Assembly (NCBI GenBank): GCA_963730445.1
Contig: CAVSRX010000007.1
Span: forward strand, 115,554-179,553
DNA length: 64,000 bases
Direction: 5' to 3'
Source: Vicinamibacterales bacterium
GTDB lineage: Bacteria > Acidobacteriota > Vicinamibacteria > Vicinamibacterales > JAMQPK01
The notes beneath the pieces were generated by a model. It was given only the letters and a program-made list of their open reading frames with translations. It searched no databases and had not been told where the DNA came from. Shown here piece by piece: positions 26,727-42,092 of the stretch. Position 1 is the first letter of the stretch, and each line of letters starts with the position of its first letter. The position numbers were made by a program, and so were the translations under genes.

Positions 26727-26730
26727 ACCC

Positions 26731-28575
26731 CTATTCGACGGTTACGCTTTTTGCGAGATTGCGCGGCTGATCGACGTCGGCGCCGCGGAGGGTCGCCAGG
26801 TGGTATGCCAGCAGCTGCAGCGGAATCGCCGTGAGGAACGGCTGCAGCCAGTGTGGAGCGCGCGGAATCGGAATCTGCACGTCGGCGATCCCTTTGCTCG
26901 CCTCGTCCCCCTCGGTGACGATGGCAATCACGAATCCATCGCGCGCCTTCACTTCCTGAATGTTGCTGGCCATGCTCGCCAGCGTCGGCCCGCACGGTGC
27001 GAGCGCGACAACCGGCGTGCCCGATTCGATGAGCGCGATTGGCCCGTGCTTCATTTCGCCGGCCGGGTAGCCCTCGGCGTGCTGATAGGAAATTTCCTTC
27101 AGCTTGAGGGCGCCTTCGAGCGCCATCGGGTACTGGAGTCCGCGGCCGAGGTACAGGAAATCCCTCTTGTCGACGAGCGGCTCGGCAATCTTTCGAATCG
27201 CGTCGCTCTGCTCCAGCGCCTTGCGCATCAGGTCGGGCAGCGCGAGCAGCTTCGCGACGATGTCTGTCGAGAAATGAGTGTCGACGGCCCCGCGCGCGAG
27301 CGCGATCTTCAGCGCGAGCAGCGTGACCGCCGCGATCTGCGTCGTGAACGTCTTGGTCGCAGCCACCCCGATTTCGAGGCCTCCGCGCGTGTAGAGCACG
27401 CCGTCGGCTTCGCGTGCCAGCGCGCTGCCGACGATATTGCTTATCGCGACGACGCGTGTGCCGAGCGACTTGATGAGCCGGCTCCCCGCAAGCGTGTCGG
27501 CGGTCTCTCCCGACTGCGAGATGGGCACCGCCAGAAGGCCCGGTTCGGCGACGGGCCGCCGATGCCTCAGCTCGGATGCAATCTCCGCTTCCGCCGACAG
27601 CCGCGCCCACTCTTCGACGAGGTATTTGCCGAGTAGCGCCGCGTGCCACGACGTGCCGCACGCGAGGAACGACACGCGCGAGAGCGAGGCGAGATCGCGA
27701 TCCTCGAGACCGAGGCCTTCGAGCTGCACACTTGCCTTCGACGTGGCGATACGGCCGGCCAGCGTGCTCTGCACCGCGTCCGGCTGCTCGAAGATTTCCT
27801 TGAGCATGAAGTGCGCGTACCCGTTGCGCTCGACCGCCTGGGCGTTTATCGAGATGGGCGTCGCGCGCCGCCGGACCGTGCGCCCATCGAGCCGCTGAAT
27901 GCTCGCCTTGCCGCGAGTCAGAATGGCGACGTCCCCTTCTTCGAGCACGACCGCCTCGAGGCCGCGTCCGAGCAGCGCGGGGATGTCGGACGCGAGAAAC
28001 GTTTCGTCGTTGCCGAGGCCCAGCACCAACGGAGATCCGCCGCCGCGCACGGCGACGAGCATGTCGGGACGATCTTCGGTGATGCACGCGATGGCAAACG
28101 AGCCTTTCAGCTCCTTGACCGCTCGCGAGATGGCCTCGATCAGATCGCCGCCGGTCTGTCGGCGATGCGACTCGATGAGGTGCGCGATCACCTCGGTGTC
28201 GGTCTGCGACCTGAACGTGTGCCCCTTCGCCGTCAGCGACGCGCGAAGCTGCTGGTAGTTCTCGATAATGCCGTTGTGGACGACGGCCAGGTGGTTGTCA
28301 CAATCGACGTGCGGATGCGCGTTCACTTCGCAGGGACGGCCATGCGTCGCCCAGCGCGTGTGCGCAATCCCCAGCGAGCCGGCCGGCGAACCGACCTTCG
28401 CGAACTGCGCCTCGAGGTTCGAGATCTTGCCGAGGGCCTTGCAGATCTCCAGGCCGTGGCCGTTGATCGTCGCCACTCCCGCGGAATCGTATCCGCGGTA
28501 CTCGAGCCGCTTGAGGGCGGGCACGAGCACGTCGACGGCTGTGCTCGTGCCGATGTATCCGACTATGCCGCACAT
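26731..28575 (-). CDS. glmS: glutamine--fructose-6-phosphate aminotransferase
   Basis: Intact 614 aa. Starts MCGIVGYIG (Ntn Cys), with two SIS domains (PISQSGETADT) and the C-terminal ..NLAKSVTVE. Confidence 0.95.
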   Translation of the reverse strand: MCGIVGYIGTSTAVDVLVPALKRLEYRGYDSAGVATINGHGLEICKALGKISNLEAQFAKVGSPAGSLGIAHTRWATHGRPCEVNAHPHVDCDNHLAVVHNGIIENYQQLRASLTAKGHTFRSQTDTEVIAHLIESHRRQTGGDLIEAISRAVKELKGSFAIACITEDRPDMLVAVRGGGSPLVLGLGNDETFLASDIPALLGRGLEAVVLEEGDVAILTRGKASIQRLDGRTVRRRATPISINAQAVERNGYAHFMLKEIFEQPDAVQSTLAGRIATSKASVQLEGLGLEDRDLASLSRVSFLACGTSWHAALLGKYLVEEWARLSAEAEIASELRHRRPVAEPGLLAVPISQSGETADTLAGSRLIKSLGTRVVAISNIVGSALAREADGVLYTRGGLEIGVAATKTFTTQIAAVTLLALKIALARGAVDTHFSTDIVAKLLALPDLMRKALEQSDAIRKIAEPLVDKRDFLYLGRGLQYPMALEGALKLKEISYQHAEGYPAGEMKHGPIALIESGTPVVALAPCGPTLASMASNIQEVKARDGFVIAIVTEGDEASKGIADVQIPIPRAPHWLQPFLTAIPLQLLAYHLATLRGADVDQPRNLAKSVTVE

Positions 28576-28582
28576 ACAGTTT

Positions 28583-29081
28583 TTACCGTCCGTTCGCCAT
28601 CAGATTGACGAGTTCGGACTGCAGGTTGACGGCGTTGCCGTTCGAGTCGGTGCCGCTGAACGTGTGCTGCGCGGTGTGCTTCCCGCTCGTCGAGCTGCAC
28701 CACCGCGGGTTCAGCTTGATCTCGCCGTTGGCCGGCACCACCACTTTGATGCCGGTGAGGTTGTTGACGACGAACCCGTCGAAGGCGTCGATCTGCGCGT
28801 TGAACGTGACCGGGGCGCCGCCCGTTTCCTTGAGCGTCAGCTCGTAGTACCACGTGTTGTTGCGGTTCGTGCATCCGGCAATATCGGTGATGGGCTTGCC
28901 GTCGAACGGCACAGGGTTCGGGTTGATCGCCACGGTGACGCCTCCCGTCCTGCCCGTCGACGAGCTGCGACGGGTTGTTGTCGGACGGCCCCGCTGGATT
29001 CGACGAACTGCTGCAGCCCGAGGTTGCGATGAACCCGGCGAGAAGGAACACCACGCAATAGGATGTCGACTTCGAGGACAT
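28583..29081 (-). pseudogene. small lipoprotein of unknown function, one frameshift
   Basis: ATG 29081 is preceded by AGGAG. The lipobox is MSSKSTSYCVVFLLAGFIATSG-C-SSSSNP (ORF 28563..29081). The body is in ORF 28583..28933 (..VTVAINPNPVPFDGKPITDIAGCTNRNNTWYYELTLKETGG..). They join near 28950-28990. Confidence 0.55.
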
Positions 29082-29112
29082 GGCTTTCTCCTATATTGAG
29101 ACTTCGGTAGTT

Positions 29113-29130
29113 GTCCGGCTTCAGCCGGAC
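29113..29130. repeat. REP/terminator-like hairpin (GTCCGGC-TTCA-GCCGGAC)
   Basis: A perfect 7-bp stem with a 4-nt loop abutting the stop of the kinase gene (29130-29132). Same architecture as the GCCGACC hairpins. No T-tract follows. Confidence 0.55.
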
Positions 29131-29825
29131 TAGTGAGACCTGCGGGAGAAGTACCGGCGGTAATTCGTGTCGTAGCCGTATAGCGGCCGGTCGTCGTTAT
29201 TGAAGACGATGCCGACGACCTTGGCGGGATCGAGCTCGTTCAACGCTTCTTCGAGCAGCTTCCGAGGCGTCTTGTTGGCCGACACGACCACGAGCACGCC
29301 ATCGACCACGCGCGACAAGAGCGCGGAGTCGACGACGGGCACAATCGGCGGCGTGTCGAGGATTACGTAGTCGTAGCGTTCGCGAGCGTGGCTCAGCAGC
29401 TGGGGAAGCCGGGCAGAGCGAAACACTTCGTGGATCGGGCCGGCGACGGTGCCGGCCGGAATCACATCCACGTTATGGCCGTCGAGCGGCCGAATGACCT
29501 GCTGGAACGATACGTCGCCGGGGCCGACGAGATCGGCGAAGCCGAGGGCGCCGGAGCCGAGGCGCAGCTGGTTGGCCACTTCCGGCCGGCGCAGGTCGGC
29601 GTCGATCAGCAGCACGCGCGCCGCGGCGCCGCGCGCAAGGGCGCCGGCGAGGTTGATCGACGTGACGGTCTTGCCGTCGGCAGCGCCCGGGCTCGTAATC
29701 GCGATGACGCGAAGATCGCGCGTCTGGCGCAGCCGCTCGATCTTGAGCCGCAGGTTCTGATACTGCTCGGCGGCGAACGACGCGGGGTTGTTAAAGCTGA
29801 CGAGTCGAGTCGAGAGAGTTTCCAT
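29130..29825 (-). CDS. BY-kinase-type tyrosine autokinase ATPase subunit (EpsG/CpsD-like)
   Basis: Walker A ITSPGAADGKT, Walker A' LLIDADLRRP, Walker B YDYVILDTPP, and a Tyr-rich tail PLYGYDTNYRRYF. Intact 231 aa. Confidence 0.85.
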   Translation of the reverse strand: METLSTRLVSFNNPASFAAEQYQNLRLKIERLRQTRDLRVIAITSPGAADGKTVTSINLAGALARGAAARVLLIDADLRRPEVANQLRLGSGALGFADLVGPGDVSFQQVIRPLDGHNVDVIPAGTVAGPIHEVFRSARLPQLLSHARERYDYVILDTPPIVPVVDSALLSRVVDGVLVVVSANKTPRKLLEEALNELDPAKVVGIVFNNDDRPLYGYDTNYRRYFSRRSH

Positions 29826-29834
29826 GACGTGTAT

Positions 29835-31404
29835 TTATCCCCTCACCAGCAACCGCACGAGCTGCTCGTTGTTCTGAGCCATGCGAATGGAAAGCGTGAC
29901 GACCACGAAGAGCACCGCGGCCAGACAGCCGGTCGCGGCCGCCCACCGAAGCACGCGCGTCGTCGGTTTCGGATACATGCGCGGAATCGACCCGAGCACC
30001 GGAATCCGCGTGAACTGGCGAACCTCGTCGACGTTGTGAAATGTCGTGTCGAACTGCTCCACCGCGAGGACGGCGATGAACGCCAGCACGAGCGCGAGAA
30101 TGAACCCCATCATCAGGAGGCGCATCCGGTTTGGCGCGCTCGGATCGGCCGGCGGAATCGCCGCTTCCATGATGCGGAAGCGCTCGCCCGACTTGTCGGT
30201 CTCCATGCTTTCCGACACCTGCGCTTCGCCGTATCGCGTCAGCAGTGAGTTGTAGATCTCCTGCGCGGCATTGTGGTCGCGCGAGATCATCGCGTAGTCC
30301 TGCTGGCGCGTCGGCATGCTCTCGAGCTTCTTCTCCGTGGCCACGATCTGCGCCCGGATCGATTCCTCTTCGCGCTTCTGCTTGTCGAGCTCCGCGTCGA
30401 GGTTGCCGAGCACCGCCGCACGGCCTCGCGCCTGTCCCGCAGCCATCGCCTCTTCAGGCGTGGGCGCGTTCGGCTTGCCCTGCGTGGCTTCGAGCGCGGC
30501 AATCTCCTGTTTCAGCCGCATGACGTCGGGGTGCTTGCTCGTGAATCGCGACTCCAGGTCGCCGAGCGCGGCTTTCTTCTGATCGAGCAGGTCGGCGGTC
30601 GGCGAATCGGATGCGGACATCCGGCCGCTGGGGCTGCCCGACGCCGGAATGCCGTCCATCAGCCGCTGGCGCTGTTCGAGCGTTCTGATCTGCTGCTCGC
30701 TGATGAGCCGCAGCTGCGTGTTCAAGCGATCCAGCGTCGCGAGGTTCATGTCGACCTGCTGCGGCAGCTCGCCGTTGTGCGCCGACGTGTAGGAGCGAAG
30801 GCGCCCTTCCTGCACGTCGAGCTGGCGTTTGGCCTCCTCGAGCTGCGACTTGAGGAAATGCGAGGTCTTGCTTGCGTCGCCCGACCGCATGGCGTCGTTC
30901 TGCGCGACGTAGAAGGTCGCGATGTCGTTGGTGACCAGCGCGACGGTGTCCTGCCGTTCGCCCGTGTAGCTCAGGTTGAACGCGACGGTTTTGATCTTGC
31001 CGCTCAGCATCTCGGGACCGGTCGGGTCGACGTTGACGTCGCGCCGCATCTGATCGAGCGCGCCTTCGATTTGCCCGCCGCCTCTGAGCTCGGGATACAG
31101 GTTGTACCGGGTAATGAGCTGCGTGAGCCGTCGCGCGGCTCAGAATCTCCTGCTTGATGATGTGCAGCCGGCTCTCGAGCTCGCCGCTCACCGCGGCTCG
31201 GACGAATTGTTCCGATACCGGGCGCTCGACGAGCACGACCGCCGTGGCTCGGTAGAGGTTCGGCAGATACAGCGCAAACGTCACAGCCGACGCCAGCACC
31301 GTGGCGAACACGACGAGAGCAATCATCTTGCGCCGCCGGAGAATCTCCAGCGAGCGAAGCATCATGGAATCTTCCTGCGCAGTCGAGAGAATGTCGCGGG
31401 GCAT
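29835..31404 (-). pseudogene. polysaccharide chain-length determinant (Wzz/GumC/EpsF-like), one frameshift
   Basis: The N-terminus is in ORF 30454..31404 (MPRDIL..MIALVVFATVLASAVTFALYLPNLYRATAVVLVER..IIKQEILSRA). It continues in ORF 29835..31049 (..RLTQLITRYNLYPEL..MRRDVNVDPTG.., a long coiled coil, and the C-terminal TM LLMMGFILALVLAFIAVLAV). The join is near 31130-31140. Confidence 0.8.
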
Positions 31405-31413
31405 GAGGACCTC

Positions 31414-32091
31414 TTATGGAACGACGATGATGTCGCCGGGCTGCACGACCAGGTTCGCCTGCTCGTCGCCGGCCGCTACTTTGCGGTAGTTGAACGGGAT
31501 TCTCTTGGTCTCGCCGTTCTCCTGGCGGAGGACCACGACGCGATCGCGCGCCGCGAAGTCGGTGAAGCCCTGCGCGAGCGCAATCATCTCGAGCACCGTG
31601 GCCGCGCTCTTCAGCTCGTAGCGCCCCGGGGTCTTCACCGACCCCACGACCGCCACTTTCATGCTGTGCACTTCGCGGACGATGACCGCCACTTCCGGCG
31701 CCGGAATGAACTCGGACAGCCGATCGATCAGCTGCTGCCGCAGCGCGGTCGGCGTGAGGCCGGCGGCCTGAATGTCGTTGACGAGCGGCAGCGACACTTT
31801 GCCGTCGGGGCGCACCGGCACGGTGCGGCTCAGCTCGGGGTTCTTCCACACCGAGATGTCGAGCAGATCCTCGGGCCCGATCTTGTAGTCGTTGGCGTTA
31901 TTGAGGATCGCGGTTTCGATTTTCGTGGCGGCCGGAGCGGCGGCAACGGCTGGCGTAGCCGGCGTGCCCGCCGTAGCGCCGTCAGGCGTGGAAGCGGGAG
32001 CTGGCGTCGCGGTCGCGGCCAGCTCCTGCGCGGACGCTGCGCCCGCGACGAGAAGAGAGGCTGCCGCGGCAGCAAAGATACGACGGATCAT
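31414..32091 (-). CDS. periplasmic polysaccharide export protein (Wza-like, Poly_export plus SLBB)
   Basis: ORF trimmed to the ATG at 32091. Signal peptide MIRRIFAAAAASLLVAGAASA, then YKIGPEDLLDISVW..VRPDGKVSLPLV..VAVVGSVKTPGRYEL. ATGA overlap with the upstream stop. Confidence 0.85.
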   Translation of the reverse strand: MIRRIFAAAAASLLVAGAASAQELAATATPAPASTPDGATAGTPATPAVAAAPAATKIETAILNNANDYKIGPEDLLDISVWKNPELSRTVPVRPDGKVSLPLVNDIQAAGLTPTALRQQLIDRLSEFIPAPEVAVIVREVHSMKVAVVGSVKTPGRYELKSAATVLEMIALAQGFTDFAARDRVVVLRQENGETKRIPFNYRKVAAGDEQANLVVQPGDIIVVP

Positions 32092-33283
32092 CGGAACACT
32101 CCTTTGGAACGCGGATCGTTCGGATCCGCCGGTCTGATGCGGCTGAGGCGCGGCGCGAACGTCACGCTCACCTTCAGGACGTGACGGACGATTTCCCTGT
32201 CCGAGAGGAACTCGCTGCGAACATCGCCCTTCTGAAAGTCGACGCCGTAGGAACCGGCGACGACATACGAGGACCCCGGACTGTACGAGACGACCATCTC
32301 GGGGTGAAACACACGTGCGTGGCCTTGAAACAGCGTTTGGCTTTGGAACACGCCGGCGTGGCCGCCGACCTCGATATTGCGGCGAACGGGCCACGACGAC
32401 TTCAGAGAGAAGCTCTGGATGTCGACCGGGCCTCGAATGCCCATGATGATCGTTTCACCCTGCCAGTAGTCGAGCCCGAAGCGCCCGGCGCGAAGCTGCT
32501 TCGAAAAGTTCGCCAGCACCTCAGGCTTGTTGTTTCCGTACGACGACGAACGCGGTCCGCCCTGCACACTGAAATTTGTTCCCACTCCGACAGCGCGGCT
32601 GTATCCCAGGAGGACGGCGTGCGAGCGCTCCGTGGCGGCCGGGTTGAACATGTCTGCACCACTCGCAAAAGTCCGGCCGAGATAATTGACGGACCAGACG
32701 TCGCGAGTTGTTTGCATCCTCGACACCCCGAAGCGCGCGATGAACATGTCGCCCTGCATGTCCGCGCCGAGCATTTCCTTCGTCGCGTCGTACTGCGCCG
32801 TGACGATCGTCCGCGAACGAATGCGATACGGAGATGGCCGGTGTCAGCTGATACCGGCGCGCGCGCTGGCGGCCGAGCAGCACGCCGGTGTCGAACATGA
32901 GATCGCCCGGGCGGTCCGACACGTCGTAGCGGCCGATGAGCGACAGCCGGAACTGCGGGTTGATCTGGAAGCCCGTGTTGATCATCGCGTGCCGCTTGGC
33001 GTCGAGCGAGTTCAGCGTCGAGAAGCCGACGGCGCGCTGCATGTCGAAGTTGAACAGGCTGCGGAACGTCGTGGTCGGCGATTCGTAGAACGCTTCGAAG
33101 GCCGGCGTGACGAGCATCATCGCGTCGCCGCTGCCCTGCTGCGTCGTGAAGATGTTGTCGTCGTAGGTCGTGCTGAACGACACCGACGGCACGAGCTCCA
33201 TGCGCGCCTGCGCACCGGCATCGGCGGCGGCGAGCAACAGCCGCAAGAAGAATGAGCAGAGGAATGCGTGATGGCATGGTCAT
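32088..33283 (-). pseudogene. outer-membrane beta-barrel protein of the EPS locus (EpsL-like), 2-3 frameshifts
   Basis: ATG 33283 forms an ATGA overlap with the NusG-like stop. The signal peptide MTMPSRIPLLILLAAVA shifts into ..AAADAGAQARMELVPSVSFSTTYDDNIF (ORF 32521..33246), then into ORF 32088..32774. The sequence shows an alternating beta-strand pattern ending ..DPRSKGVFR. Confidence 0.6.
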
Positions 33284-33813
33284 CGCTTTGAACGGACGGC
33301 CGTGCAGTCGACCTCGACCGCAACGCTGCGTCCGAGAAGGTCGACGTTCAGCACGAGTCGCCCTTTGGTTGGCTTGTCCTGCACGAACAACCCTTCGAGG
33401 CCCGAGAGCGGGCCCTCGGTCACCTCGACCCGATCGCCCTGGGCGAGGTGCTCGTGCGCGAACACCGGCACTTCGGCGGTGACGACCTGTTGCAGGGCAT
33501 CGATCTCGACGTCGGGTACCGGCGTGAGGCGGGTCCATCCGTCTTCGAGAATGCGCACGACGCCGCGTGCTTTCAGAATTTCGACGTAACTCTGCTTGTC
33601 CATCCCGTCGCGCACGAACAGGTACCCGGGGAACATGGGGACGCGAATCAGGCGCTGCTCGCCGCCGCGCTTCGACCAGACGCTCATCTCCGGCAGAAAT
33701 GCCGTGAACCCTTTCGCCGACAGCTGTTGCGACACGGACTGCTCGAAGTGGCTCTGGGTCCACACCGCATACCATGCCGGATTCTGAATTCCCGTCACTC
33801 CCGAAACTGCCAA
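33280..33813 (-). CDS. NusG/RfaH-family transcription antiterminator paralog (UpxY-like), first gene of the EPS operon
   Basis: ..NPAWYAVWTQSHFEQSVSQQLSAKGFTAFLPE..PMFPGYLFV (NGN domain) plus the KOW motif GDRVEVTEGPLSGLEGLF. The start is TTG 33813 (AAGGGGG sits 7 nt upstream) or GTG 33798. The long ORF 33280..34341 is a start-less extension. Confidence 0.75.
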   Translation of the reverse strand: MAVSGVTGIQNPAWYAVWTQSHFEQSVSQQLSAKGFTAFLPEMSVWSKRGGEQRLIRVPMFPGYLFVRDGMDKQSYVEILKARGVVRILEDGWTRLTPVPDVEIDALQQVVTAEVPVFAHEHLAQGDRVEVTEGPLSGLEGLFVQDKPTKGRLVLNVDLLGRSVAVEVDCTAVRSKR

Positions 33814-34174
33814 GGCTTCGCCCCCTTCGGTTTGCGATTTCCTTTTCTGAAATCGCCGGCCGCTGCCGAGTCGTATAAGTCGCGCTCTTCGTCTCCGCCT
33901 TCGCGGAAACGTTGACCGCGACCGTTTGGTTCGCGGACGACAGCCGACACTGCATTTTGTGTTCCCGATTTTCAGGAGTGATTGGAAAAGTCGGTGATTC
34001 GGCGGGCGAGTGTTTGCGAATCGATACAGATCATTGGAGATCGCGGAACGAAACAGCCGGAAAATATATTTGTCGCGCGGAACGAACTTGATCGCAAAAA
34101 GTGCCGCAAGTGGCGAACAGCGTTCAACTTGTATGCTTTTTGTGGTGTTCGGCCTGACCTCGTATGAAAAAGTA
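33814..34174 (-). promoter_or_regulatory. ~360-nt comparatively AT-rich leader/promoter region of the EPS operon
   Basis: This is the only long non-coding gap in the 32-kb locus, lying between the arsR stop (34175) and the NusG-like start. It contains A/T tracts (caaatatattttcc, cacaaaaagcatacaagttgaac on the minus strand). No promoter could be assigned confidently. Confidence 0.45.
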
Positions 34175-34630
34175 TCAAATGCGCGCGCGCCGGCGATCCT
34201 TGCGGCGCTCGGTTCGACGATTGCCCCCCTCCTTCGCGCGCGCTCCGGCGGATGAACAGCATTCGAGATGCGTGGACTCCATCGGCACACAGCATCCGGT
34301 CTGCGCTTCGAGTCGCTGACGATCTCTTGTGACGGCGTCACAATGCGAGAGGACGTGCGTGACGGCGCTCATCAGCACGCGCATGACGGGTTCGTCGAGC
34401 GCGGCGAGCTTGTAGTGCACCCACAGCCCATCCTTTCGCGTCTCGACGAGATGTTTGCGGCGCAGATACGCGAGATGACGCGAAGCAGCGGGCTGCGAAA
34501 TGCCCAGGCAGTCGTGAATATTGCAGACGCAGATCTCTCCTCCCGCCAGCAAGCCGAGGATGCGCAGCCGTGTCGGGTCGGCGAAGGCCTTGAACGCGTC
34601 TTCCAATGTGGTGAGCCGGGCGTCTTTCAT
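34175..34630 (-). CDS. arsR: ArsR/SmtB-family metalloregulator
   Basis: FKAFADPTRLRILGLL..GEICVCNIHDCLGISQPAASRHLAYLRRKHLV (winged HTH with a CVC metal site) and a Cys-rich C-terminus (CCVP..ECC). GGAG lies 3 nt before the ATG. Confidence 0.9.
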   Translation of the reverse strand: MKDARLTTLEDAFKAFADPTRLRILGLLAGGEICVCNIHDCLGISQPAASRHLAYLRRKHLVETRKDGLWVHYKLAALDEPVMRVLMSAVTHVLSHCDAVTRDRQRLEAQTGCCVPMESTHLECCSSAGARAKEGGNRRTERRKDRRRARI

Positions 34631-34638
34631 GTCTCCAG

Positions 34639-34706
34639 TATATGCCTATTGACATATATATACGTACGGGAATATTGTCCTGGTAGTGTATTCGTATAGG
34701 CATATA
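34639..34706. promoter_or_regulatory. divergent arsR/arsM control region with an 11-bp perfect inverted repeat (candidate ArsR operator)
   Basis: TATATGCCTAT (34639-34649) and ATAGGCATATA (34696-34706) are exact reverse complements 46 bp apart. They flank an ATATATATACGTACG core in a 75-bp intergenic region. Confidence 0.6.
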
Positions 34707-35482
34707 TGGAGGGCAGCATGAACGGCACAGACATCAGGCAGGCAGTGCAGCAGAAGTACGGCGAGATCGCGGCGGCGGTGAAATCGGGCGGGGCGGCGTG
34801 TTGCGGCCCCTCCTGCTGTTCCACCGAGGACCCTATCACCGGGAACCTCTATAAGAACGAACAGACGTCCGGTCTTCCCACTGAAGCGGTGACCGCATCG
34901 CTCGGATGCGGCAACCCCACGGCCCTCATCGATCTGCACGAGGGGGACACGGTGCTCGACCTCGGCTCGGGCGGAGGCATCGACGTGCTGCTGTCGGCCC
35001 GCCGCGTCGGCGCGACCGGCAAGGTCTACGGCCTCGACATGACCGACGAGATGCTCGAGCTCGCGCGCGACAACCAGCGCAAGGCCGGCGTCGGGAACGT
35101 GGAATTCCTGAAAGGCGATATCCAGGCCATCCCGCTCCCCTCGCGCTCGGTGGACGTGGTCATTTCAAACTGCGTGATCAACCTCGCGCCCGATAAGAGC
35201 CAGGTGCTGGCCGAGGCGTTCCGCGTCCTCAAGCCGGGTGGGCGGTTCGCGGTCTCGGACGTCGTGGTTCGCGGCGAGGTCTCCCCTGCCCTGCGCCGCG
35301 ACATGGAACTGTGGGTCGGATGCATCGCCGGGGCCCTGGACGAGACCGACTACAAGAACAAGCTCGTGGCTGCGGGATTCGAGGATGTCAACGTGGAGAC
35401 ATGGCGGGTCTACGAAGGGCTGGCCGGAGAAGCGGAGGGCACGTTCGCCAGCGCATTCATCAGGGCGACGAAACCTGCCTGA
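34706..35482 (+). CDS. arsM: arsenite S-adenosylmethionine methyltransferase
   Basis: Cys-rich N-terminus (GGAACCGPSCC), SAM motif VLDLGSGGGIDV, ..VISNCVINL.., WVGCIAG. The true start may be ATG 34718, since GGAGGG lies at 34708-34713. Confidence 0.88.
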   Translation: MEGSMNGTDIRQAVQQKYGEIAAAVKSGGAACCGPSCCSTEDPITGNLYKNEQTSGLPTEAVTASLGCGNPTALIDLHEGDTVLDLGSGGGIDVLLSARRVGATGKVYGLDMTDEMLELARDNQRKAGVGNVEFLKGDIQAIPLPSRSVDVVISNCVINLAPDKSQVLAEAFRVLKPGGRFAVSDVVVRGEVSPALRRDMELWVGCIAGALDETDYKNKLVAAGFEDVNVETWRVYEGLAGEAEGTFASAFIRATKPA

Positions 35483-35512
35483 TTGGCACTGTTATGGCAG
35501 AGGGGCAAGGCC

Positions 35513-37597
35513 ATGAGCCCGACCGCGGCCCGTCGCGCCCGACGGCTGCCCGCCAAAACGACAGCAGCATCGGCGGCGGGTCCCGATCTCCGGGATCCGT
35601 CGCTCTACTTCGACCGCGAGCTCAGCTGGCTATCCTTTAATGATCGGGTGCTGGAGCAGGCCAGGGCCGGCCATCCGCTGCTCGAGCGTGCCAAGTTTTT
35701 CGGCATTGCCGCCAACAACCTCGACGAGTTCTTCATGGTGCGCCTCGACAAGGCCGATTCGCGCGCGCGGGACCGCGCCACGACGATGCTCGCCGAGCTG
35801 TCGGACTTCTGGCAGGAGACGCTGCGCACACAACTCGCCGAAGAGGGCATCATCGTGCTCGAAACCAGCGATTACACCGACGACGATCGCGCGTATCTCG
35901 AGCGGCAGTTCAACATCGATGTCTGCCCCGTGCTGACGCCGCTGGCGTTCGACCCCGGGCATCCGTTCCCGCTCGTCTCGAATCGCAGCAAGAACCTCGC
36001 GGTGGTGGTCGAACACAAAGGGCGGACGAAGTTTGCGCGCGTGAAGGTGCCCGATCTGCTGCCGCGCTTCGTCGCGCTTCCCCGTTCTGAGGGCATCCGC
36101 CGCTTCGCGATGCTCGAAGACGTCATTCGCGAAAACCTCGGCCAGCTCTTTCCCGGCGTGGGCATTCGCACCGCACACATGTTCCGCGTCGTCCGCGACA
36201 TGGAAGTGGCGGTGACCCATCCCCAGGACACCGCAGAAACCATTCTGGAAGTGGTCGATCGCGGACTGCGCGAGCAGCAGCGCGGACCGGTCTCGCTGCT
36301 CGAGGTCGATCACGCCATGCCCTCGCGCGTGCTGGATCTGCTGATCGAGAATTTCGAAACGAGCCGCGATGTCATCCATCGGACTCGCGGCCGGATGGGG
36401 TTTGCCGATTGGATGGCGCTCGCCGCGATCGCGCGCCCCGATCTGCACGACCGGCCGCTGAAGCCGGCCCAAATCTGGCGGAAGGGATCGCCGGACATCT
36501 TCGATGAGATCCGCTATCGCGATCAGCTGGTCCACCACCCCTTCGACTCGTTCCAATCGGTGGAGTCGTTCGTCGACGCGGCCATCGACGACCCGCGCGT
36601 CGTCGCCATCAAGATGACGCTCTACCGCATCGGCACCAACTCGCCGGTCGTCGATCGGCTCATCAAAGCGGCCGAGCGCGGCAAGCAGGTCGCGGTACTC
36701 GTGGAGTTGAAGGCGCGATTCGACGAGCGCAGCAACATCGAGTGGGCAAAGCGACTTGAAGACGCGGGGGTGCACGTCGTGTACGGCGTGGAAAAGCTGA
36801 AGACCCATTGCAAGCTCTGCCTCGTCGTCCGGCAGGAAGAAGACGAGATTCGCCGCTACGTCCACATCGGCAGCGGCAACTACAATCGAACGACTGCGAG
36901 GCTGTACACCGACATCGGCCTCTTCACCGCGCGGCCCGGAATCGTCGCCGACGTGTCCGAGCTGTTCAACTATCTGACGGGCTATTCGAACCAGAAAGAT
37001 TACCGCGAGCTGCTGATTGCCCCGGTCGCGCTGCGGCGGCGATTCGGCAAGCTCGTCGCGCGCGAGATGGGGCACGCCAAGCGCGGGAAGCCGGCGCGCA
37101 TCATCGTCAAGTCCAATGCCCTGACCGATCCGGGCCTCGTCCGGCTGCTCTACCGCGCATCGCAGGCCGGCGTGAAAATCGACCTGGTTATCCGCGGCGT
37201 TTGCGTGCTCCGGCCCGGGGTGCCCGGCGTCAGCGAAAACATCATGGTGCGCTCGATCGTCGGCCGCTTCCTCGAGCATTCGCGCATCTGGTATTTCGAG
37301 AACGACGGCAAGCCGCAGGTGTATATCGGCAGCGCCGATCTGATGGAGCGCAACCTGAACAAGCGCGTCGAGGCGGTCTGCCCGGTGCTCGACACGGAAC
37401 TGGCTCAGTTTCTCCGGCATGTCGTGCTCGAGGCGTATCTGCGCGACAATGTCCGCGCGCGCGTGCTGCAGGCTGACGGCACGTACGTGGCGGTCGAGCG
37501 CGACGGCGTGCCATTCGATGCGCAGTACACAATGATGAGCCGGCGCCTCCGGTCGATGCTGGCGCGCGAGCGGCTTGGGGATCAACTGCAACAATAG
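35513..37597 (+). CDS. ppk: polyphosphate kinase 1
   Basis: ORF 35483..37597 trimmed to the ATG at 35513. Motifs: LYFDRELSWLSFNDRVLEQA, NLDEFFMVR, KTHCKLCLVVRQEEDEIRRYVHIGSGNYN (autophosphorylated-His region) and two PLD-like C-domains. Intact. It starts 30 nt after arsM and ends 2 nt before arsC. Confidence 0.93.
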   Translation: MSPTAARRARRLPAKTTAASAAGPDLRDPSLYFDRELSWLSFNDRVLEQARAGHPLLERAKFFGIAANNLDEFFMVRLDKADSRARDRATTMLAELSDFWQETLRTQLAEEGIIVLETSDYTDDDRAYLERQFNIDVCPVLTPLAFDPGHPFPLVSNRSKNLAVVVEHKGRTKFARVKVPDLLPRFVALPRSEGIRRFAMLEDVIRENLGQLFPGVGIRTAHMFRVVRDMEVAVTHPQDTAETILEVVDRGLREQQRGPVSLLEVDHAMPSRVLDLLIENFETSRDVIHRTRGRMGFADWMALAAIARPDLHDRPLKPAQIWRKGSPDIFDEIRYRDQLVHHPFDSFQSVESFVDAAIDDPRVVAIKMTLYRIGTNSPVVDRLIKAAERGKQVAVLVELKARFDERSNIEWAKRLEDAGVHVVYGVEKLKTHCKLCLVVRQEEDEIRRYVHIGSGNYNRTTARLYTDIGLFTARPGIVADVSELFNYLTGYSNQKDYRELLIAPVALRRRFGKLVAREMGHAKRGKPARIIVKSNALTDPGLVRLLYRASQAGVKIDLVIRGVCVLRPGVPGVSENIMVRSIVGRFLEHSRIWYFENDGKPQVYIGSADLMERNLNKRVEAVCPVLDTELAQFLRHVVLEAYLRDNVRARVLQADGTYVAVERDGVPFDAQYTMMSRRLRSMLARERLGDQLQQ

Positions 37598-37599
37598 CG

Positions 37600-38017
37600 A
37601 TGGCTGACACGCTCGGTCCGTCCAAGGTGGTCTTTGCCTGCGTCGCGAATGCGGGGCGATCGCAGATGGCGGCTGCGCTTTTTCAACACGCTCGCCAAAC
37701 CGGCGCGCGCCCGCGCGATCTCCGCGGGCACCCGTCCAGGGACCGCGGTTCACCCCGAAGTGGTGACGGCAATGCGCGAGCTGAACATCGACATCTCCTC
37801 TGCCACGCCGCAGTACCTCTCGACCGACCTCGTGAAGGATGCGCACATCCTGATTACGATGGGATGCGGCGACGAGTGCCCGCTCATCCCCGGCGTCGAG
37901 CGCGACGACTGGCCGCTCGACGATCCGAAAGGACAGCCGGTAGAAACGGTGCGGCGGATACGGGACGAGATCAAGATGAGAGTGGCGGAGTTGGTGAAGG
38001 AGAGGAAGTGGGGGTAA
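37600..38017 (+). pseudogene. arsC: arsenate reductase, LMW-PTPase type, one frameshift
   Basis: MADTLGPSKVVFACVANAGRSQMAAALF (CX5R P-loop, ORF 37600..) continues as NTLAKPARARAISAGTRPG..ITMGCGDECP..DPKG (ORF 37634..38017). Removing one T from the T5 run at 37679-37683 restores one frame. Confidence 0.8.
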
Positions 38018-38126
38018 GAGTCGGAGAGAGTCGGAGAGAGTTGGAAGAGTCGGGAGAGTCGAGAGAGTCGGGGATAGTTGGAAGAGTCGAGAGAGTCGAT
38101 AAGAGTCGGAAGAGTCGAACGAGAGT
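38016..38126. repeat. degenerate 8-10-nt tandem array (A)GAGAGTCGG x ~12, containing ~9 GAGTC (GANTC) sites
   Basis: The array fills the whole arsC-map spacer: taagagtcggagagagtcggagagagttggaagagtcgggagagtcgagagagtcggggatagttggaagagtcgagagagtcgataagagtcggaagagtcgaacgagagt-ATG. It is strongly purine-rich on the plus strand. Confidence 0.85.
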
Positions 38127-38870
38127 ATGTCTATAGAAACGGCCGCCGATCTTGAGGGCATCACGCTCGCCGGGCGGGTCGTGGCTGAAGCGCTTTCTGC
38201 GATGGTGCGTGACGTCCGGCCCGGCATGACGACGAGGGATCTCGATGAGATTGGCGCCGGCGTCCTGAAGCAACACGGGGCGCGATCGGCACCCCAGGTT
38301 GTCTACGGGTGTCCGACTGTCAATTTGATTAGTGTGAACGACGAGGTCGTGCATGGACTGCCTGGATCGCGGGTGCTGCACGCCGGCGACGTCGTGAAAA
38401 TGGATGTGACCGCTGAGACCGGAGGATACATCGCGGATGCTGCGACCACTGTTGTGCTTCCCCATGCATCGGCCGACGCGTTGAAGCTTCGCGATTGCGC
38501 TGTCGCAGCGTTCGCGGCGGGCGTTGGAGTGGCGCGCGCAGGCAGCCGCGTTTCCGAGATCGGACGGGCCGTTGAACAGGAAGTTTCAGCCCGCGGATTT
38601 CACGTCCTCCGCGAGTTATCCGGGCATGGCGTCGGCCGGACGATTCATGAGTCGCCGACGGTTCCGAACTATTTCGATCCATTTCAGCGCGATCGACTGA
38701 CAGAAGGACTGGTGCTCACAATCGAGCCGCTGATTTCAGAACGCCGGACGCGCATTCGAACATGCGCCGATGGCTGGACTCTAAGAACCGCGAACGGCTG
38801 CCTCGCCGCGCATCACGAGCACACGATCATCGTGACAAACGGCGCTCCTATAGTTGTCACGGCTCTTTAA
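38127..38870 (+). CDS. map: type I methionine aminopeptidase
   Basis: Intact 247 aa, with ..VVHGLPG..DVVKMDV..GGYIADAA..HGVGRTIHE..LTIEP..HHEHTIIVT metal-ligand pattern. Confidence 0.9.
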   Translation: MSIETAADLEGITLAGRVVAEALSAMVRDVRPGMTTRDLDEIGAGVLKQHGARSAPQVVYGCPTVNLISVNDEVVHGLPGSRVLHAGDVVKMDVTAETGGYIADAATTVVLPHASADALKLRDCAVAAFAAGVGVARAGSRVSEIGRAVEQEVSARGFHVLRELSGHGVGRTIHESPTVPNYFDPFQRDRLTEGLVLTIEPLISERRTRIRTCADGWTLRTANGCLAAHHEHTIIVTNGAPIVVTAL

Positions 38871-38873
38871 CGC

Positions 38874-38889
38874 GACTCTCCGACTCTTT
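38874..38889. repeat. inverted copies of the GAGTCGG unit (GACTCTCCGACTCTTT)
   Basis: This is the reverse complement of aaagagtcggagagtc and lies 4 nt after the map stop. A degenerate third unit (ccccgacttt) follows at ~38904. Together with 38016-38126 it brackets map in inverted orientation. Confidence 0.7.
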
Positions 38890-39383
38890 CAAGACGCCCA
38901 CACCCCGACTTTCAATCGCCGCGCCATTGCCTCGAGCGCGATGAACTCGTCGCGCCGCGGGTGTGAGCCCTGGCGATCGGCGTAGCCGTAGCCGCGCTGG
39001 ATCATCTGCGCGTTCACGAGCGTCTTGTCCGCGAGAAATACATAGGCGTACCGGCGCCCTTCCAAATCCCCGATTCGCCACCCGTCGTATACGGGCGTTA
39101 CGCGCTGACCGACGAGAGTCGAGAGGAATGCGGCCGCATCAGGTGCCACGTTCTTGCCGCCCAACAGCTCGCCGCCACCAATTGGTGCGTGTGCGATGAC
39201 GGCAGAGCGCAGCGGAGGTTCGACGCCTCGCAGCGCGACCAGCCCGGCGCCGCAGACGTTGAGTGTGTAGTCGCGTCCATGATCGACGGCCATCACCTGG
39301 CCTGGGATGCACTGCACATTTTGCGCGATTGAGATTACCGACAGGAGCGCAAATCCAAGCGCGATAAGCATGGCTTTAGGCAA
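38889..39383 (-). CDS. secreted thermonuclease (SNase)-like protein
   Basis: Signal peptide MPKAMLIALGFALLSVISIAQ. The tail RRYAYVFLADKTLVNAQMIQRGYGYA..EFIALEAMARRLKVGVW resembles the staphylococcal-nuclease C-terminal region. Confidence 0.6.
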   Translation of the reverse strand: MPKAMLIALGFALLSVISIAQNVQCIPGQVMAVDHGRDYTLNVCGAGLVALRGVEPPLRSAVIAHAPIGGGELLGGKNVAPDAAAFLSTLVGQRVTPVYDGWRIGDLEGRRYAYVFLADKTLVNAQMIQRGYGYADRQGSHPRRDEFIALEAMARRLKVGVWAS

Positions 39384-39570
39384 CGTCCGGCGGCTCCGTC
39401 GAATCAGACGCCACCGAAACAGCCCATCGCTTGTAACAGCTGAGACACACGATCACGATGTACTCGCCTTCTGGCGGAGCGACGTGCACCTGCGCCGACT
39501 GACACGCGGGGCATCGAAGCTGATGCGACCCGCGCGGAACCTTCTTTTGCGGAACCTTCTTCTGCACCAA
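39376..39570 (-). CDS. small zinc-ribbon protein (CPAC..CLSC)
   Basis: 64-aa ORF overlapping the nuclease start by 8 nt. It has a Lys-rich N-terminus followed by RCPACQSAQVHVAPPEGEYIVIVCLSCYKRW. Same architecture as the 56-aa ORF at 45348..45518. Confidence 0.5.
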   Translation of the reverse strand: MVQKKVPQKKVPRGSHQLRCPACQSAQVHVAPPEGEYIVIVCLSCYKRWAVSVASDSTEPPDVA

Positions 39571-39657
39571 GTCCCCTTCATGCTACGCCTTCTGACTGGT
39601 CGTCATCAATTCGGACGTGCCTGCCCGCCGATCGGCGGTACACTTACCCGCTTGACG

Positions 39658-40542
39658 ATGCGATTTTCGCTCTGGTTGTGGATGGCGGCGACGCTCGTGG
39701 CCATGGCTGCGACGATTGCGCACACCCAAACGCAGACGGTGCGCCTGTATCTCGAAGCGCTCGACGAGCGTGGCCCCGTCGAGGGGCTCGCGCCGAGCGA
39801 CGTCGCGATATTCGACAGCGGAGCAACCCGCACGATTACGCAGCTCGTTCGCGCGGACGATCCAATGCGCATTCTCCTGCTCGTCGACAACGGACGCTCC
39901 GCACAACCGTTCATCCAGGAAATCCGCGGCGGCATTGTCGCGTTTGCCGATGCGATTCCGGCTGTGCACGAGCTCGGCCTCGTCACCATCGGGAACACTC
40001 CCGTGGTGCGCCAGGAGCCGTCACTCGACCGGATGAAGCTCAAACAGATCGCCAGGACGCTGACAAGCGGCGGCACAACCGTGCTGGTCGGCGCCGTCTA
40101 CGAGATGTACGACCGCTTCTTGCGCAACGCCGGCGATCGCTGGCCTGTGCTGGTCATCATCACGAGCGACGGCTCGGAAGGCAGCGGCCAGTTCTACCCC
40201 GAGAAGTTCGCCGCGTTCGGCCGCGACATGCAGGCGAAGGACGTCGTCGCGCACGCGATTGTGCTGATATCGGCGAAAGGGGATGCGCTGCAGGTTCAGA
40301 TCGCTCGTGCACTGACCGAAGGCACGGGCGGCACCTATAACACCACGGCCACTGGCGGCGACCTGACGAGCAGGCTCGCGGCGATGGCGCAGGATATCGT
40401 CGCGGACTTCGATCGCACGTCCACGCAATATCGTCTGGAGTACGCCACCGAATCTGCGCAGCCGGCCTCCGATTTAAAAGTCAGCTTGCTCCGCGACGGT
40501 GTGAAGATGCGGATGTCGCGCGCGGGACGCATTCGGGACTGA
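39658..40542 (+). CDS. secreted VWA-domain protein (VWFA-related acidobacterial type)
   Basis: ORF 39307..40542 trimmed to the ATG at 39658. Signal peptide MRFSLWLWMAATLVAMAATIAHTQ, then VRLYLEALDERG..DVAIFDSG, ILLLVDNG and VLVIITSDGSEGS. It resembles the N-terminal part of the 57293 ORF. Confidence 0.65.
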   Translation: MRFSLWLWMAATLVAMAATIAHTQTQTVRLYLEALDERGPVEGLAPSDVAIFDSGATRTITQLVRADDPMRILLLVDNGRSAQPFIQEIRGGIVAFADAIPAVHELGLVTIGNTPVVRQEPSLDRMKLKQIARTLTSGGTTVLVGAVYEMYDRFLRNAGDRWPVLVIITSDGSEGSGQFYPEKFAAFGRDMQAKDVVAHAIVLISAKGDALQVQIARALTEGTGGTYNTTATGGDLTSRLAAMAQDIVADFDRTSTQYRLEYATESAQPASDLKVSLLRDGVKMRMSRAGRIRD

Positions 40543-40557
40543 CGCTCGCTCGGTTCC

Positions 40558-41127
40558 TCACCGCTTGGCGCGCGCCATATCCGTGACACGGCGAACGAAC
40601 TCACCTTTTCCATCTGTGTACGCCGTCCGATCGTTGGGGAACTCAGCAGCGAGACGCAGCTTCAGCTCGAGATATTGCTGCGCGACGTCTGGATGCGCGA
40701 TGAGATAGTCGCGAAACAGCAGCGCCTCCCACTGCGGAAAATCGCGCTCCACCATGTGAATGTGATGCGTGCGCCGCCCCTCTCTGTCGCGCTTGATGAA
40801 CCAGGCGTAGAACGGGGGCACATCGTCGCCGCTCGTCGGCCGCCACAGATAGTCGTAGCCGTCACCTTCCAGCACCGGCACAATCTGCTCCGTGGTTGCT
40901 TCGAGGCTGGTCACTTCGATTAACATGTCGACGATCGGCTTTGCCGAAAGACCCGGGACTGCCGTGCTGCCCATGTGTTCGACGCGCCGCACGAGCGCCG
41001 GAAAGAGATCGACAAGGCGCGCGCGCTCTTCGAGAAACAGCCCAGGCCATCGAGAGTCGTAGGGCACGATCTCGACCGTCTCGCGCCCAAGGCGCTCGAT
41101 GCGCTCGCGCAGGTGCTCCGGAATCAC
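40558..41127 (-). CDS. GrpB-family (UPF0157) protein
   Basis: VEIVPYDSRWPGLFLEE..VEHMGSTAVPGLSAKPIVDMLIEV..HIHMV..FRDYLIAHPDVAQQYLELK. Confidence 0.8.
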   Translation of the reverse strand: MIPEHLRERIERLGRETVEIVPYDSRWPGLFLEERARLVDLFPALVRRVEHMGSTAVPGLSAKPIVDMLIEVTSLEATTEQIVPVLEGDGYDYLWRPTSGDDVPPFYAWFIKRDREGRRTHHIHMVERDFPQWEALLFRDYLIAHPDVAQQYLELKLRLAAEFPNDRTAYTDGKGEFVRRVTDMARAKR

Positions 41128-41453
41128 GGAATCGGCTGTAGCGTCGGCGGCTCGCGCATCACCCGCACGAGCAGCGTCGGATTGGTGATCGCGACCGGCA
41201 GCGATGCATTGTTCACGTTGACAGGAAGCGATGCATTACTCACGATGACGGGAAGCGCCCTCGCGCCAAGGTTGACGCGAAATCCTTCCGACGTAAACAG
41301 CGGCGTCCCCTTCGCATCGACGAGCATCACCGGCGCCGGCTCGGGCTTGCCCGCCTGCGCTTGTGCCACTGGCGTTGCGCCGTTCACGCACATCCACACC
41401 AGACACGCCGCTATGACGGTGAGCACGGCTTTCGTATAGAAGTCGACTTTCAT
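41124..41453 (-). CDS. small secreted hypothetical protein
   Basis: 109 aa with an N-terminal TM/signal segment (AVLTVIAACLVWMCVNG) and a repeated NASLPV motif. The stop overlaps the GrpB start (ATGA). Confidence 0.45.
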   Translation of the reverse strand: MKVDFYTKAVLTVIAACLVWMCVNGATPVAQAQAGKPEPAPVMLVDAKGTPLFTSEGFRVNLGARALPVIVSNASLPVNVNNASLPVAITNPTLLVRVMREPPTLQPIP

Positions 41454-41552
41454 GGCTCCTCCTCCGCACAGGATCGCATGAAAGGCGACCGGCCAAACCG
41501 GCGGTCTCGTCGTCTAAAGCTGCCACTAATAGCATTTCTGAGGAGGGTGCCG

Positions 41553-42092
41553 ATGACTCGGGTCCTTTCGCTATTCGTGTGCCTTGCCGCGGCGACGGTG
41601 TGTCCAGCTTTCGCCCAATCGTTGAATACTTCGGTCTCGACGCGCATTGCATTCTTCAGCCCATCACGAGCATTTGCCGAGTCTGCCGACGGCAAGGCGG
41701 CCACCGCGCGCCTGACATCGCTCGAAGCTGTTCGCGTAAAGGCCGCTCAGGAGAAAGAGGCCGCGCTCCAAAAGCTGGAGCGATCGCTCGAGCAATCGAC
41801 GGCGGTGCTCAGTGAATCCGCGCGTGGGGTACGCACAAAAGAGCTGGAGCGGTTTCGCCTCGATACGCAACGGTTTATCGAGGACGCGCAGGCTGAGCTG
41901 ATGGGCGTGCGCCGCGATGCGGAGAGCGCATTTCTCGTGAAGTTGCGGCCGGCTATTGAGCGGGTCATCAAGGACAACGGTATTCAGCTGTTGTTCAATT
42001 TCGACAGCGGCGTGCTGGCGTGGGGTGATCCGTCCCTCGATGTGACCAGCGAGATCCTCAAACACGTTGAAAGTCCTCCCGCGGCAAAGTAG
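41553..42092 (+). CDS. OmpH/Skp-like periplasmic chaperone
   Basis: ATG 41553 follows GAGGAGGG. Signal peptide MTRVLSLFVCLAAATVCPAFA, then a long coiled-coil region rich in E, K, R and L. Confidence 0.65.
   Translation: MTRVLSLFVCLAAATVCPAFAQSLNTSVSTRIAFFSPSRAFAESADGKAATARLTSLEAVRVKAAQEKEAALQKLERSLEQSTAVLSESARGVRTKELERFRLDTQRFIEDAQAELMGVRRDAESAFLVKLRPAIERVIKDNGIQLLFNFDSGVLAWGDPSLDVTSEILKHVESPPAAK

Follow-up and report, generated by a model that had tools for sequence, protein, structure and literature searches.

In a 64,000-nt stretch of DNA from a Vicinamibacterales bacterium (assembly GCA_963730445.1, contig CAVSRX010000007.1, positions 115,554-179,553 of the forward strand; hereafter the window, whose own numbering is used for its features), a polyphosphate kinase gene, ppk1, lies between the arsenic genes arsM and arsC, and a regulator gene, arsR, is divergent from arsM. 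The distribution of these genes among related bacteria, and a conserved element directly before ppk1, point to ars genes that gathered around a resident, separately controlled ppk, rather than to a kinase recruited into the ArsR regulon. On balance, we slightly favour a dual-input arrangement, in which a resident ppk1-arsC pair would be transcribed from its own -24/-12 element and also by arsenite-induced read-through from the arsM promoter. The features of the cluster are as follows:

arsR, 34175-34630, minus strand: ArsR/SmtB metalloregulator of 151 amino acids (HTH_5, PF01022, 5.7e-13; NF033788, 93.6 bits against a cut-off of 55)
arsR/arsM control region, 34631-34717, no strand assigned: sigma-70-type promoter for arsM and a conserved block
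arsM, 34706-35482, plus strand: As(III) S-adenosylmethionine methyltransferase (NF008823, 340.7 bits against a cut-off of 263)
-24/-12 element TTGGCACTGTTATGGCA, 35483-35499, plus strand: GG at 35485-35486 and GC at 35497-35498, 13 nt before the ppk1 ATG
ppk1, 35513-37597, plus strand: polyphosphate kinase 1 of 694 amino acids (TIGR03705, 769 bits against a cut-off of 465.85)
arsC, 37600-38017, plus strand: three-cysteine (thioredoxin-type) arsenate reductase of the low-molecular-weight (LMW) phosphatase fold, disrupted by a 1-nt insertion
Frameshift site, 37678-37683, plus strand: GCG-C-TTTTT-C, one base more than in six aligned relatives (DNA alignment)

Coordinates and family profiles bear out the initial annotation of this DNA on the gene order, the divergent orientation of arsR, and the gaps of 30 nt between arsM and ppk1 (35483-35512) and 2 nt between ppk1 and arsC (37598-37599). 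Its observation that no terminator separates the plus-strand genes also holds, as a terminator scan found no terminator-like site at the arsM-ppk or the ppk-arsC junction, and RNA folding of the two junctions was no more stable than that of shuffled sequence (z-scores of +0.67 and +0.94). A terminator-like match on the plus strand at 37661-37677 lies inside arsC at the frameshift run and was taken as a chance match. An Rfam scan of positions 30000-42000 gave no match.

Distribution and decay of the cluster

We compared the window with the neighbourhoods of 11 further lineages, one of which (L085) is on a contig that is cut upstream. PPK homologues of 73-92% identity were numerous, and the few named ones were mostly labelled Vicinamibacterales. 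Among the matches listed in scans of genome and metagenome contigs, the only close PPKs were those of L001, L084 and L085, and the rest were mostly 40-50% identical; the other clade neighbourhoods were reached through individual PPK homologues. The arrangements found are listed here, with R, M, P and C standing for arsR, arsM, ppk and arsC, and percentages giving PPK identity to the window:

L081, 91%: R, deletion remnant of M, P, C
L085, 90%: P C, with the 5' side cut by the contig end
L167, 90%: P only
L168, 86%: R M P C, with an identical PPK protein on 11 contigs
L082, 85%: scrap of M (residues 150-205), no R, P C
L083, 84%: R M P C
L171, 82%: R M P C
L172/L173, 78%: R M P C
L084, 76%: R M P C
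L001, 75%: R M P C, the GTDB Vicinamibacterales metagenome-assembled genome DATEEI01
L166, 74%: P C

A neighbour-joining tree of PPK proteins placed all twelve lineages (74-92% identical) in one Vicinamibacterales clade. arsC directly follows ppk in 11 of the 12, counting the window. The upstream side is sequenced in 11 lineages; arsR and arsM are both intact in seven of them (including the window), two carry arsM remnants, with arsR intact in L081 and absent in L082, and two have neither gene. The adjacency reported in the initial annotation is thus not a chance arrangement, as the full order recurs down to a PPK identity of 75%. It is found on both deep branches of the PPK tree, with the gene-loss lineages nested within, which suggests that the cluster was gained once and has eroded independently at least three or four times. 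The divergence of ArsM, ArsR and ArsC spans the same range as that of PPK (68-87%).

No ars genes were found near ppk in the sister lineages L164 (68%) and L165 (67%), or in other Vicinamibacterales at 55-59% identity. Among the matches listed, approximately 150 more distant ppk loci also had no ars genes near ppk, with the single exception of a Cyanobium contig (L030) with an ArsM-like match 5 kb from ppk, and no ArsC-like gene was found beside ppk outside the clade.

Within the clade, the four genes stay together despite differing flanks. The relatives have IMPDH...RNase PH-Ham1-DAO/Rieske-AhpC next to arsR, and the window has an UpxY-family antiterminator gene and genes for capsule or exopolysaccharide; the downstream neighbours of the cluster also vary among relatives. 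The spacer between ppk and arsC is 2-4 nt in the window, L081, L082, L166, L168 and L171, and reaches its maximum, approximately 115 nt, in L001.

The stages of decay differ between lineages. L081 (9572-9950 of that locus) has kept arsR and the promoter, and its arsM is cut to residues 1-110 plus a C-terminal tail. In L082 the arsM scrap lies at about 9830-9940, and in L167 (5855-8130) arsR, arsM and arsC are all lost and a VWA-domain gene follows ppk.

Of the four genes, ppk alone was never found damaged in the clade loci. Because ppk, alone or together with arsC, persists where arsR and arsM have been lost or have decayed (L166, L167, L082 and L081), it appears to be a stable resident gene, which argues against the implication of the initial annotation that it is a component of an ars operon. 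It is most likely the ordinary resident polyphosphate kinase of the lineage. Vicinamibacteraceae accumulate polyphosphate and carry ppk genes, according to a published report (PMC8100337).

A conserved sigma-54-like element before ppk1

The product of ppk1 contains all four PPK1 domains (PP_kinase_N, PP_kinase, PP_kinase_C_1 and PP_kinase_C; PF13089, PF02503, PF17941 and PF13090). It matches the solved structure of Escherichia coli PPK (1xdo, 4e-114) and retains the catalytic and autophosphorylated histidine motifs of its two PLD-like C domains (KTHCKL against kiHaKL, and HIGSGN against HIGtGN). In the N domain only profile positions 1-56 of 107 were matched, and there are gaps in this region in the alignment with the E. 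coli protein. The N-terminus M-S-P-T-A is conserved in relatives, and there is no other in-frame start codon from 35516 to the conserved LYFDRELSWLSFN block.

The element TTGGCACTGTTATGGCA occupies the start of the 30-nt spacer between arsM and ppk1. The clade consensus is TTGGCA-N5-ATGGCA, and the site in the window is the only exact match to it in 64 kb. In all 11 clade members in which the 5' end of ppk is sequenced, the element is located 12-17 nt before the conserved M-S-P-T start. It is present in L166, L167 and L082, which lack an intact arsR and arsM, and also in the ars-free sisters L164 and L165. Over 13 loci, the GG, A, T and GCA positions carry 2 bits each while flanking positions carry 0-0.5 bits, and GG-N10-GC is invariant. 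The element has the GG at -24 and GC at -12, spaced by 10 nt, that characterise sigma-54 promoters; it differs from TGGCAC-N5-TTGCW at one of the 11 specified positions, and there is no other such site in the window.

These features suggest that the element is probably used by sigma-54. Transcription would then be predicted to begin at approximately 35509-35511, so that the ppk mRNA would have little or no leader. Consistent with a leaderless mRNA, the purine-rich stretch ahead of the ppk start codon shows no conservation. Four more distant Vicinamibacterales ppk loci at 55-57% identity (L004, L087, L088 and L089) carry a different conserved GG-N10-GC element, CGGCATCGGTCCTGCA, approximately 75 nt before ppk. 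This element keeps GG-N10-GC without a direct repeat, as would be expected of a sigma-54 promoter but not of a direct-repeat binding site. By its sequence pattern, ppk may be under sigma-54-type control throughout the order Vicinamibacterales.

We also considered a direct repeat of the PhoB/OmpR type (TGGCA twice, with an 11-bp period). This was rejected as the primary reading because just 12-17 nt separate the end of the element from the one usable start codon, too little for a -10 box and a leader, and it is further disfavoured by the distant group that keeps GG-N10-GC without the repeat. The element may instead be a repressor site or work as an RNA element. Whichever reading holds, the sequence comparison indicates that it is a ppk-specific cis-element older than the association with ars genes.

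These results change the picture of transcription given in the initial annotation, which had arsM, ppk1 and arsC as probably co-transcribed in a single ArsR-controlled unit. Co-transcription of ppk and arsC remains very plausible given spacers of 2-4 nt in most lineages, but the spacer between arsM and ppk contains a conserved promoter-like element. The idea of one ArsR-controlled unit is weakened by this independent ppk promoter, predicted from sequence and shared with the ars-free sisters.

arsC encodes a frameshifted arsenate reductase

The arsC gene of the window is split into two reading frames. The frame from 37600 encodes the P-loop CVANAGRS (VVFACVANAGRSQMAAALF) and matches ArsC over codons 1 to approximately 27, after which it is nonsense up to a stop at 38136. 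The remaining 112 ArsC residues are in the +1 frame (37634-38017), the only frame in which Pfam detects LMWPc (2.8e-09), and tblastn accordingly recovers ArsC in two segments (37600-37686 and 37679-38014). Removal of one base yields a 138-amino-acid ArsC that is 68-83% identical to those of ten relatives, all of which are intact at the frameshift site. The initial annotation was therefore correct on the start at 37600, but it overlooked the 1-nt insertion, and arsC is not a single open frame to 38017. The correct frame continues past the shift without a further lesion, which suggests that the insertion is recent or is a homopolymer sequencing error. Each of the map, SNase, GrpB, OmpH and GYD genes that the window has in common with relatives aligns as a single segment. 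A programmed +1 frameshift at CUU-UUU-C was rejected, since the relatives all encode ArsC in one frame.

The best solved-structure match of the repaired protein is an arsenate reductase (3t38, 1e-25), and the next 13 matches, down to 1e-10, are all arsenate reductases, while tyrosine and arginine phosphatases match at 1e-7 or weaker. The three-cysteine motif is present, with the P-loop C14-VANAG-R20-S and the pair C88-GDE-C92 invariant across 11 ArsC sequences. The repaired protein scores below the cut-offs of three NCBIfam models (NF010053, 76.6 against 215; TIGR02691, 65.2 against 174.3; TIGR02689, 74.4 against 157.6). Judged by its structural neighbours, the predicted protein is an ArsC-like three-cysteine arsenate reductase outside those NCBIfam equivalogs.

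The closest structure, 3t38, is the thioredoxin-coupled arsenate reductase of Corynebacterium glutamicum, whose ITMGCGDxCP motif and P-loop C-x5-R align with the repaired ArsC. The cysteine loop of the repaired protein is shorter than that of pI258 ArsC and in this matches 3t38. In contrast to the 213-residue chain of 3t38, which has an extra N-terminal part, the window ArsC is a stand-alone domain of 138 amino acids, frameshifted here.

arsM, arsR and their shared control region

The top solved-structure matches of ArsM are arsenite methyltransferases; GCGNP, SNCVINL and the C-x-AGAL cysteines align with 5evj, and the N-terminal CC...CC pair is present. The likelier start of arsM is the ATG at 34718, which would give a protein of 254 amino acids: GGAGGG precedes this codon by 5 nt, and alignments with relatives begin at residue 5.

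Orthologues of ArsR, 74-87% identical, are found at the same position in eight relatives. Conserved cysteines occur as CVC-x5-C in helix alpha-3 and as a C-terminal GCC...CC, a spacing that differs from that of R773 ArsR. The best structural matches are SmtB, HlyU, NolR and CadC. From the gene context, the ligand would be arsenite. The window ArsR has an arginine/lysine-rich C-terminal tail of approximately 20 residues (AGARAKEGGNRRTERRKDRRRARI; 34175-34250) that is missing or different in the relatives, whose ArsR proteins terminate soon after the CC motif.

The promoter of arsM consists of a -35 TTGACA at 34649-34654 and a -10 at 34671-34678 (TATTGT at 34673-34678), and was the only promoter-like match in a consensus scan of 33800-39000. 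It is enclosed by an AGTATAT-N5-CTTGACATATATAT block. The block and the -10 are kept in L081, L083, L084 and L001, while the remaining spacer is not conserved, and this block is likely to be the ArsR operator, for which we consider it a candidate from its sequence. A perfect 11-nt inverted repeat, TATATGCCTAT at 34639-34649 and ATAGGCATATA at 34696-34706, flanks the arsM promoter and ribosome-binding region and is only partially conserved in relatives.

Proposed transcription of the cluster and alternative explanations

Under the dual-input arrangement, the cluster would have been gained once, at the base of a Vicinamibacterales subclade, and mostly inherited vertically. ppk1 would have kept its own promoter-like element, probably sigma-54-dependent and predating the ars genes, from which ppk-arsC would receive basal and nutrient-regulated transcription. 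arsC would be a downstream passenger, the second gene of the ppk transcript, and its expression appears to depend on ppk transcripts because the spacers, mostly of 2-4 nt, are too short to hold a promoter. arsM would be driven by the sigma-70 promoter that overlaps the conserved AT-rich palindromic block, the likely ArsR operator, and since no terminator separates arsM from ppk, arsenite-induced read-through into ppk-arsC is probable. The net effect would be that arsenate reductase is made whenever polyphosphate is built, that is, when phosphate, and with it arsenate, is imported, with a boost when arsenite is sensed. Tying arsC to a phosphate-storing enzyme would be sensible because arsenate presumably enters the cell together with phosphate.

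Several observations weigh against this arrangement. Counts of sigma-54-like sites in the window were not above the expectation from shuffled sequence, so it is the phylogenetic conservation of the element that argues for it. The -12 half reads T-G-GCA where the consensus is T-T-GCA, the window and the available flanks of the clade loci encode neither rpoN nor an enhancer-binding protein with the GAFTGA motif, and sigma-54 promoters that yield leaderless mRNAs are unusual. In addition, four or five of the 12 lineages, including the window, show erosion of the ars genes. All of the evidence comes from one clade and so represents one evolutionary origin, and persistence of the cluster could partly reflect inertia. 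Finally, if these genomes encode a second ppk1 elsewhere, the present copy could be a dedicated paralogue.

Closest to the initial annotation is the explanation that arsM, ppk1 and arsC form one ArsR-repressed operon, with PPK as an arsenite-induced component of the arsenic response whose product would, speculatively, serve as a phosphate buffer, chaperone or ATP reserve during stress from arsenate or arsenite. The lack of terminators and the short gaps would fit such an operon, as would the order kept in seven lineages with arsM remnants in two more, and L081, in which arsM has decayed yet arsR, the promoter block and ppk-arsC are retained. We consider it unlikely, as the ars-free sisters have the conserved element upstream of ppk, ppk-arsC (L166 and L082) or ppk alone (L167) survives without arsR, ppk is the one gene of the four never damaged, and we found no published precedent. 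It also seems improbable to us that the synteny is neutral, an arsR-arsM pair and arsC having inserted by chance around a housekeeping ppk in one ancestor with no functional coupling. The single origin in one clade, the regulatory element specific to ppk and the repeated erosion (arsM remnants in L081 and L082, loss of arsR and arsM in L166, loss of all ars genes in L167 and the arsC frameshift in the window) are all in line with neutrality. Neutrality is harder to reconcile with the position of arsC right behind ppk in all but one lineage over approximately 25% protein divergence, with the apparent dependence of arsC expression on ppk, and with the cohesion of the four genes while both flanks were rearranged.

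The pairing of arsC with ppk, which holds more constantly than that of arsC with arsR and arsM, could also be read as a sign that the LMW-phosphatase-fold protein is not an arsenate reductase but a phosphatase partner of PPK, acting on phosphoproteins or polyphosphate ends and unrelated to the upstream ars genes; the scores of the repaired protein below all three NCBIfam ArsC cut-offs would agree with this. We regard this as very improbable, since the 14 best solved-structure matches are all arsenate reductases, the P-loop cysteine and the C-G-D-E-C relay pair are invariant, and arsR and arsM belonged to the ancestral cluster. A more far-reaching proposal than the dual-input arrangement is that ppk1-arsC is a selected module that hard-wires arsenate reduction to polyphosphate synthesis, under dual control by a sigma-54 promoter responding to nutrient or phosphate status and by ArsR-gated read-through, and that PPK1 itself helps the cell to tolerate arsenic; it might, for instance, sequester phosphate and thereby let it out-compete arsenate, or provide an arsenate-insensitive energy reserve. 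This is possible, although we hold it to be rather doubtful. If it were true, ppk1 would be a previously unrecognised accessory arsenic-resistance gene in abundant soil Acidobacteriota.

Comparison with known systems

The cluster resembles canonical ars operons (arsRBC of E. coli and pI258, arsRDABC of R773) and arsR-arsM units in having an ArsR/SmtB repressor gene beside its target promoter. Also common to the cluster and canonical ars systems are an As(III) S-adenosylmethionine methyltransferase with its cysteines and an LMW-phosphatase-type ArsC with a three-cysteine relay. Unlike canonical ars operons, the cluster has no arsB or acr3 nearby, as none was found in the window and the Pfam tables of the relatives show none within 6-10 kb; arsM and arsC are set apart by a 2.1-kb ppk1 of housekeeping type that has its own promoter-like element; and arsC appears to depend on transcription of ppk rather than on a promoter directly under ArsR. 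The initial annotation knew of no ars operon described with ppk1 as a member, and we likewise found no paper describing ppk inside an ars cluster; in a literature search on ppk together with ars genes, the matching papers treat the two subjects separately.

The E. coli-type ppk-ppx operon is a compact pair of genes with ppk1 in first position, and its second gene begins no more than a few nucleotides past the ppk stop. Here arsC takes the place of ppx, so that an arsenate reductase stands where the known operon has an exopolyphosphatase, and the predicted promoter is of the -24/-12 type. Phosphate-metabolism genes also travel with arsenic genes in arsenic islands, as with gapdh-arsJ and pst/pho genes, because arsenate mimics phosphate; the gene concerned is in those cases a dedicated additional copy for which a role towards arsenate has been demonstrated or proposed. 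In contrast, the ppk described here looks like a resident gene. We know of no arsenate-related activity of PPK1, and polyphosphate is not expected to chelate arsenate or arsenite. A metal-responsive ppk intended to raise tolerance has been engineered into a mer operon (work of 2001 and 2002, as cited in PMC10483234). Unlike our cluster, that construct is synthetic and targets the cation Hg2+, which polyphosphate can chelate. The parts of the cluster are ordinary members or close relatives of known families; their combination is inherited by descent, and as a cluster variant it was not described in the papers searched.

Vicinamibacterales are abundant in soil and wastewater, and some are reported to store polyphosphate (PMC8100337). 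If functional, the clade-wide arrangement, with arsenate reductase carried as a passenger on the ppk transcript, would tie phosphorus storage to the detoxification of arsenate by a concrete genetic connection, where the usual argument is only that arsenate and phosphate are chemically similar. The decay series offers natural experiments on each part, with arsM decayed, arsR and arsM lost, all ars genes lost, or arsC frameshifted. If the link is not functional, the cluster is a caution that a gene inside a resistance cluster can be the resident and the resistance genes the newcomers.

Genomic setting of the cluster

As the initial annotation had noted, no arsenite efflux gene was found; a survey of membrane ORFs (open reading frames) with Pfam detected no ArsB or Acr3 in the window among ORFs of at least 150 amino acids with at least three hydrophobic segments, a 1436-amino-acid ORF with four segments being left unscanned. 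The multi-spanning membrane ORFs scanned are a Wzy_C protein, a Na/sulfate-symporter/CitMHS protein, a DctQM fusion and a VTT-domain protein.

Upstream of arsR is a capsule/exopolysaccharide-type gene block on the minus strand (23296-33849), headed by the UpxY/RfaH-family antiterminator gene (33280-33849). Within this block are a Wzy_C polymerase/ligase (23296-24681) and, at 29835-32394, ORFs that by appearance are putative chain-length-determinant or export genes. This block adjoins arsR where all relatives have AhpC...RNase PH...IMPDH, which indicates a rearrangement breakpoint directly beside the cluster.

Downstream, the spacer between arsC and map (38017-38117) is occupied by a purine-rich tandem repeat with a 9-nt unit, AGAGTCGGG, in approximately 10.8 copies (Tandem Repeats Finder). 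The spacer has a fold z-score of -2.0, and no hairpin followed by a T-run, and hence no recognisable terminator, was found in it. Short tandem repeats also occur in L001, with GCTGGT units in the arsM-ppk spacer (forming a hairpin of -45 kcal/mol) and CACGAAG units in the ppk-arsC spacer, and intergenic microsatellites may be a feature of these genomes. An open frame of 865 codons on the minus strand (35630-38227) runs antisense to ppk and arsC. The third-position GC of the plus-strand genes is 0.80-0.83, and the antisense frame was taken as a probable shadow ORF of the kind typical of high-GC DNA.

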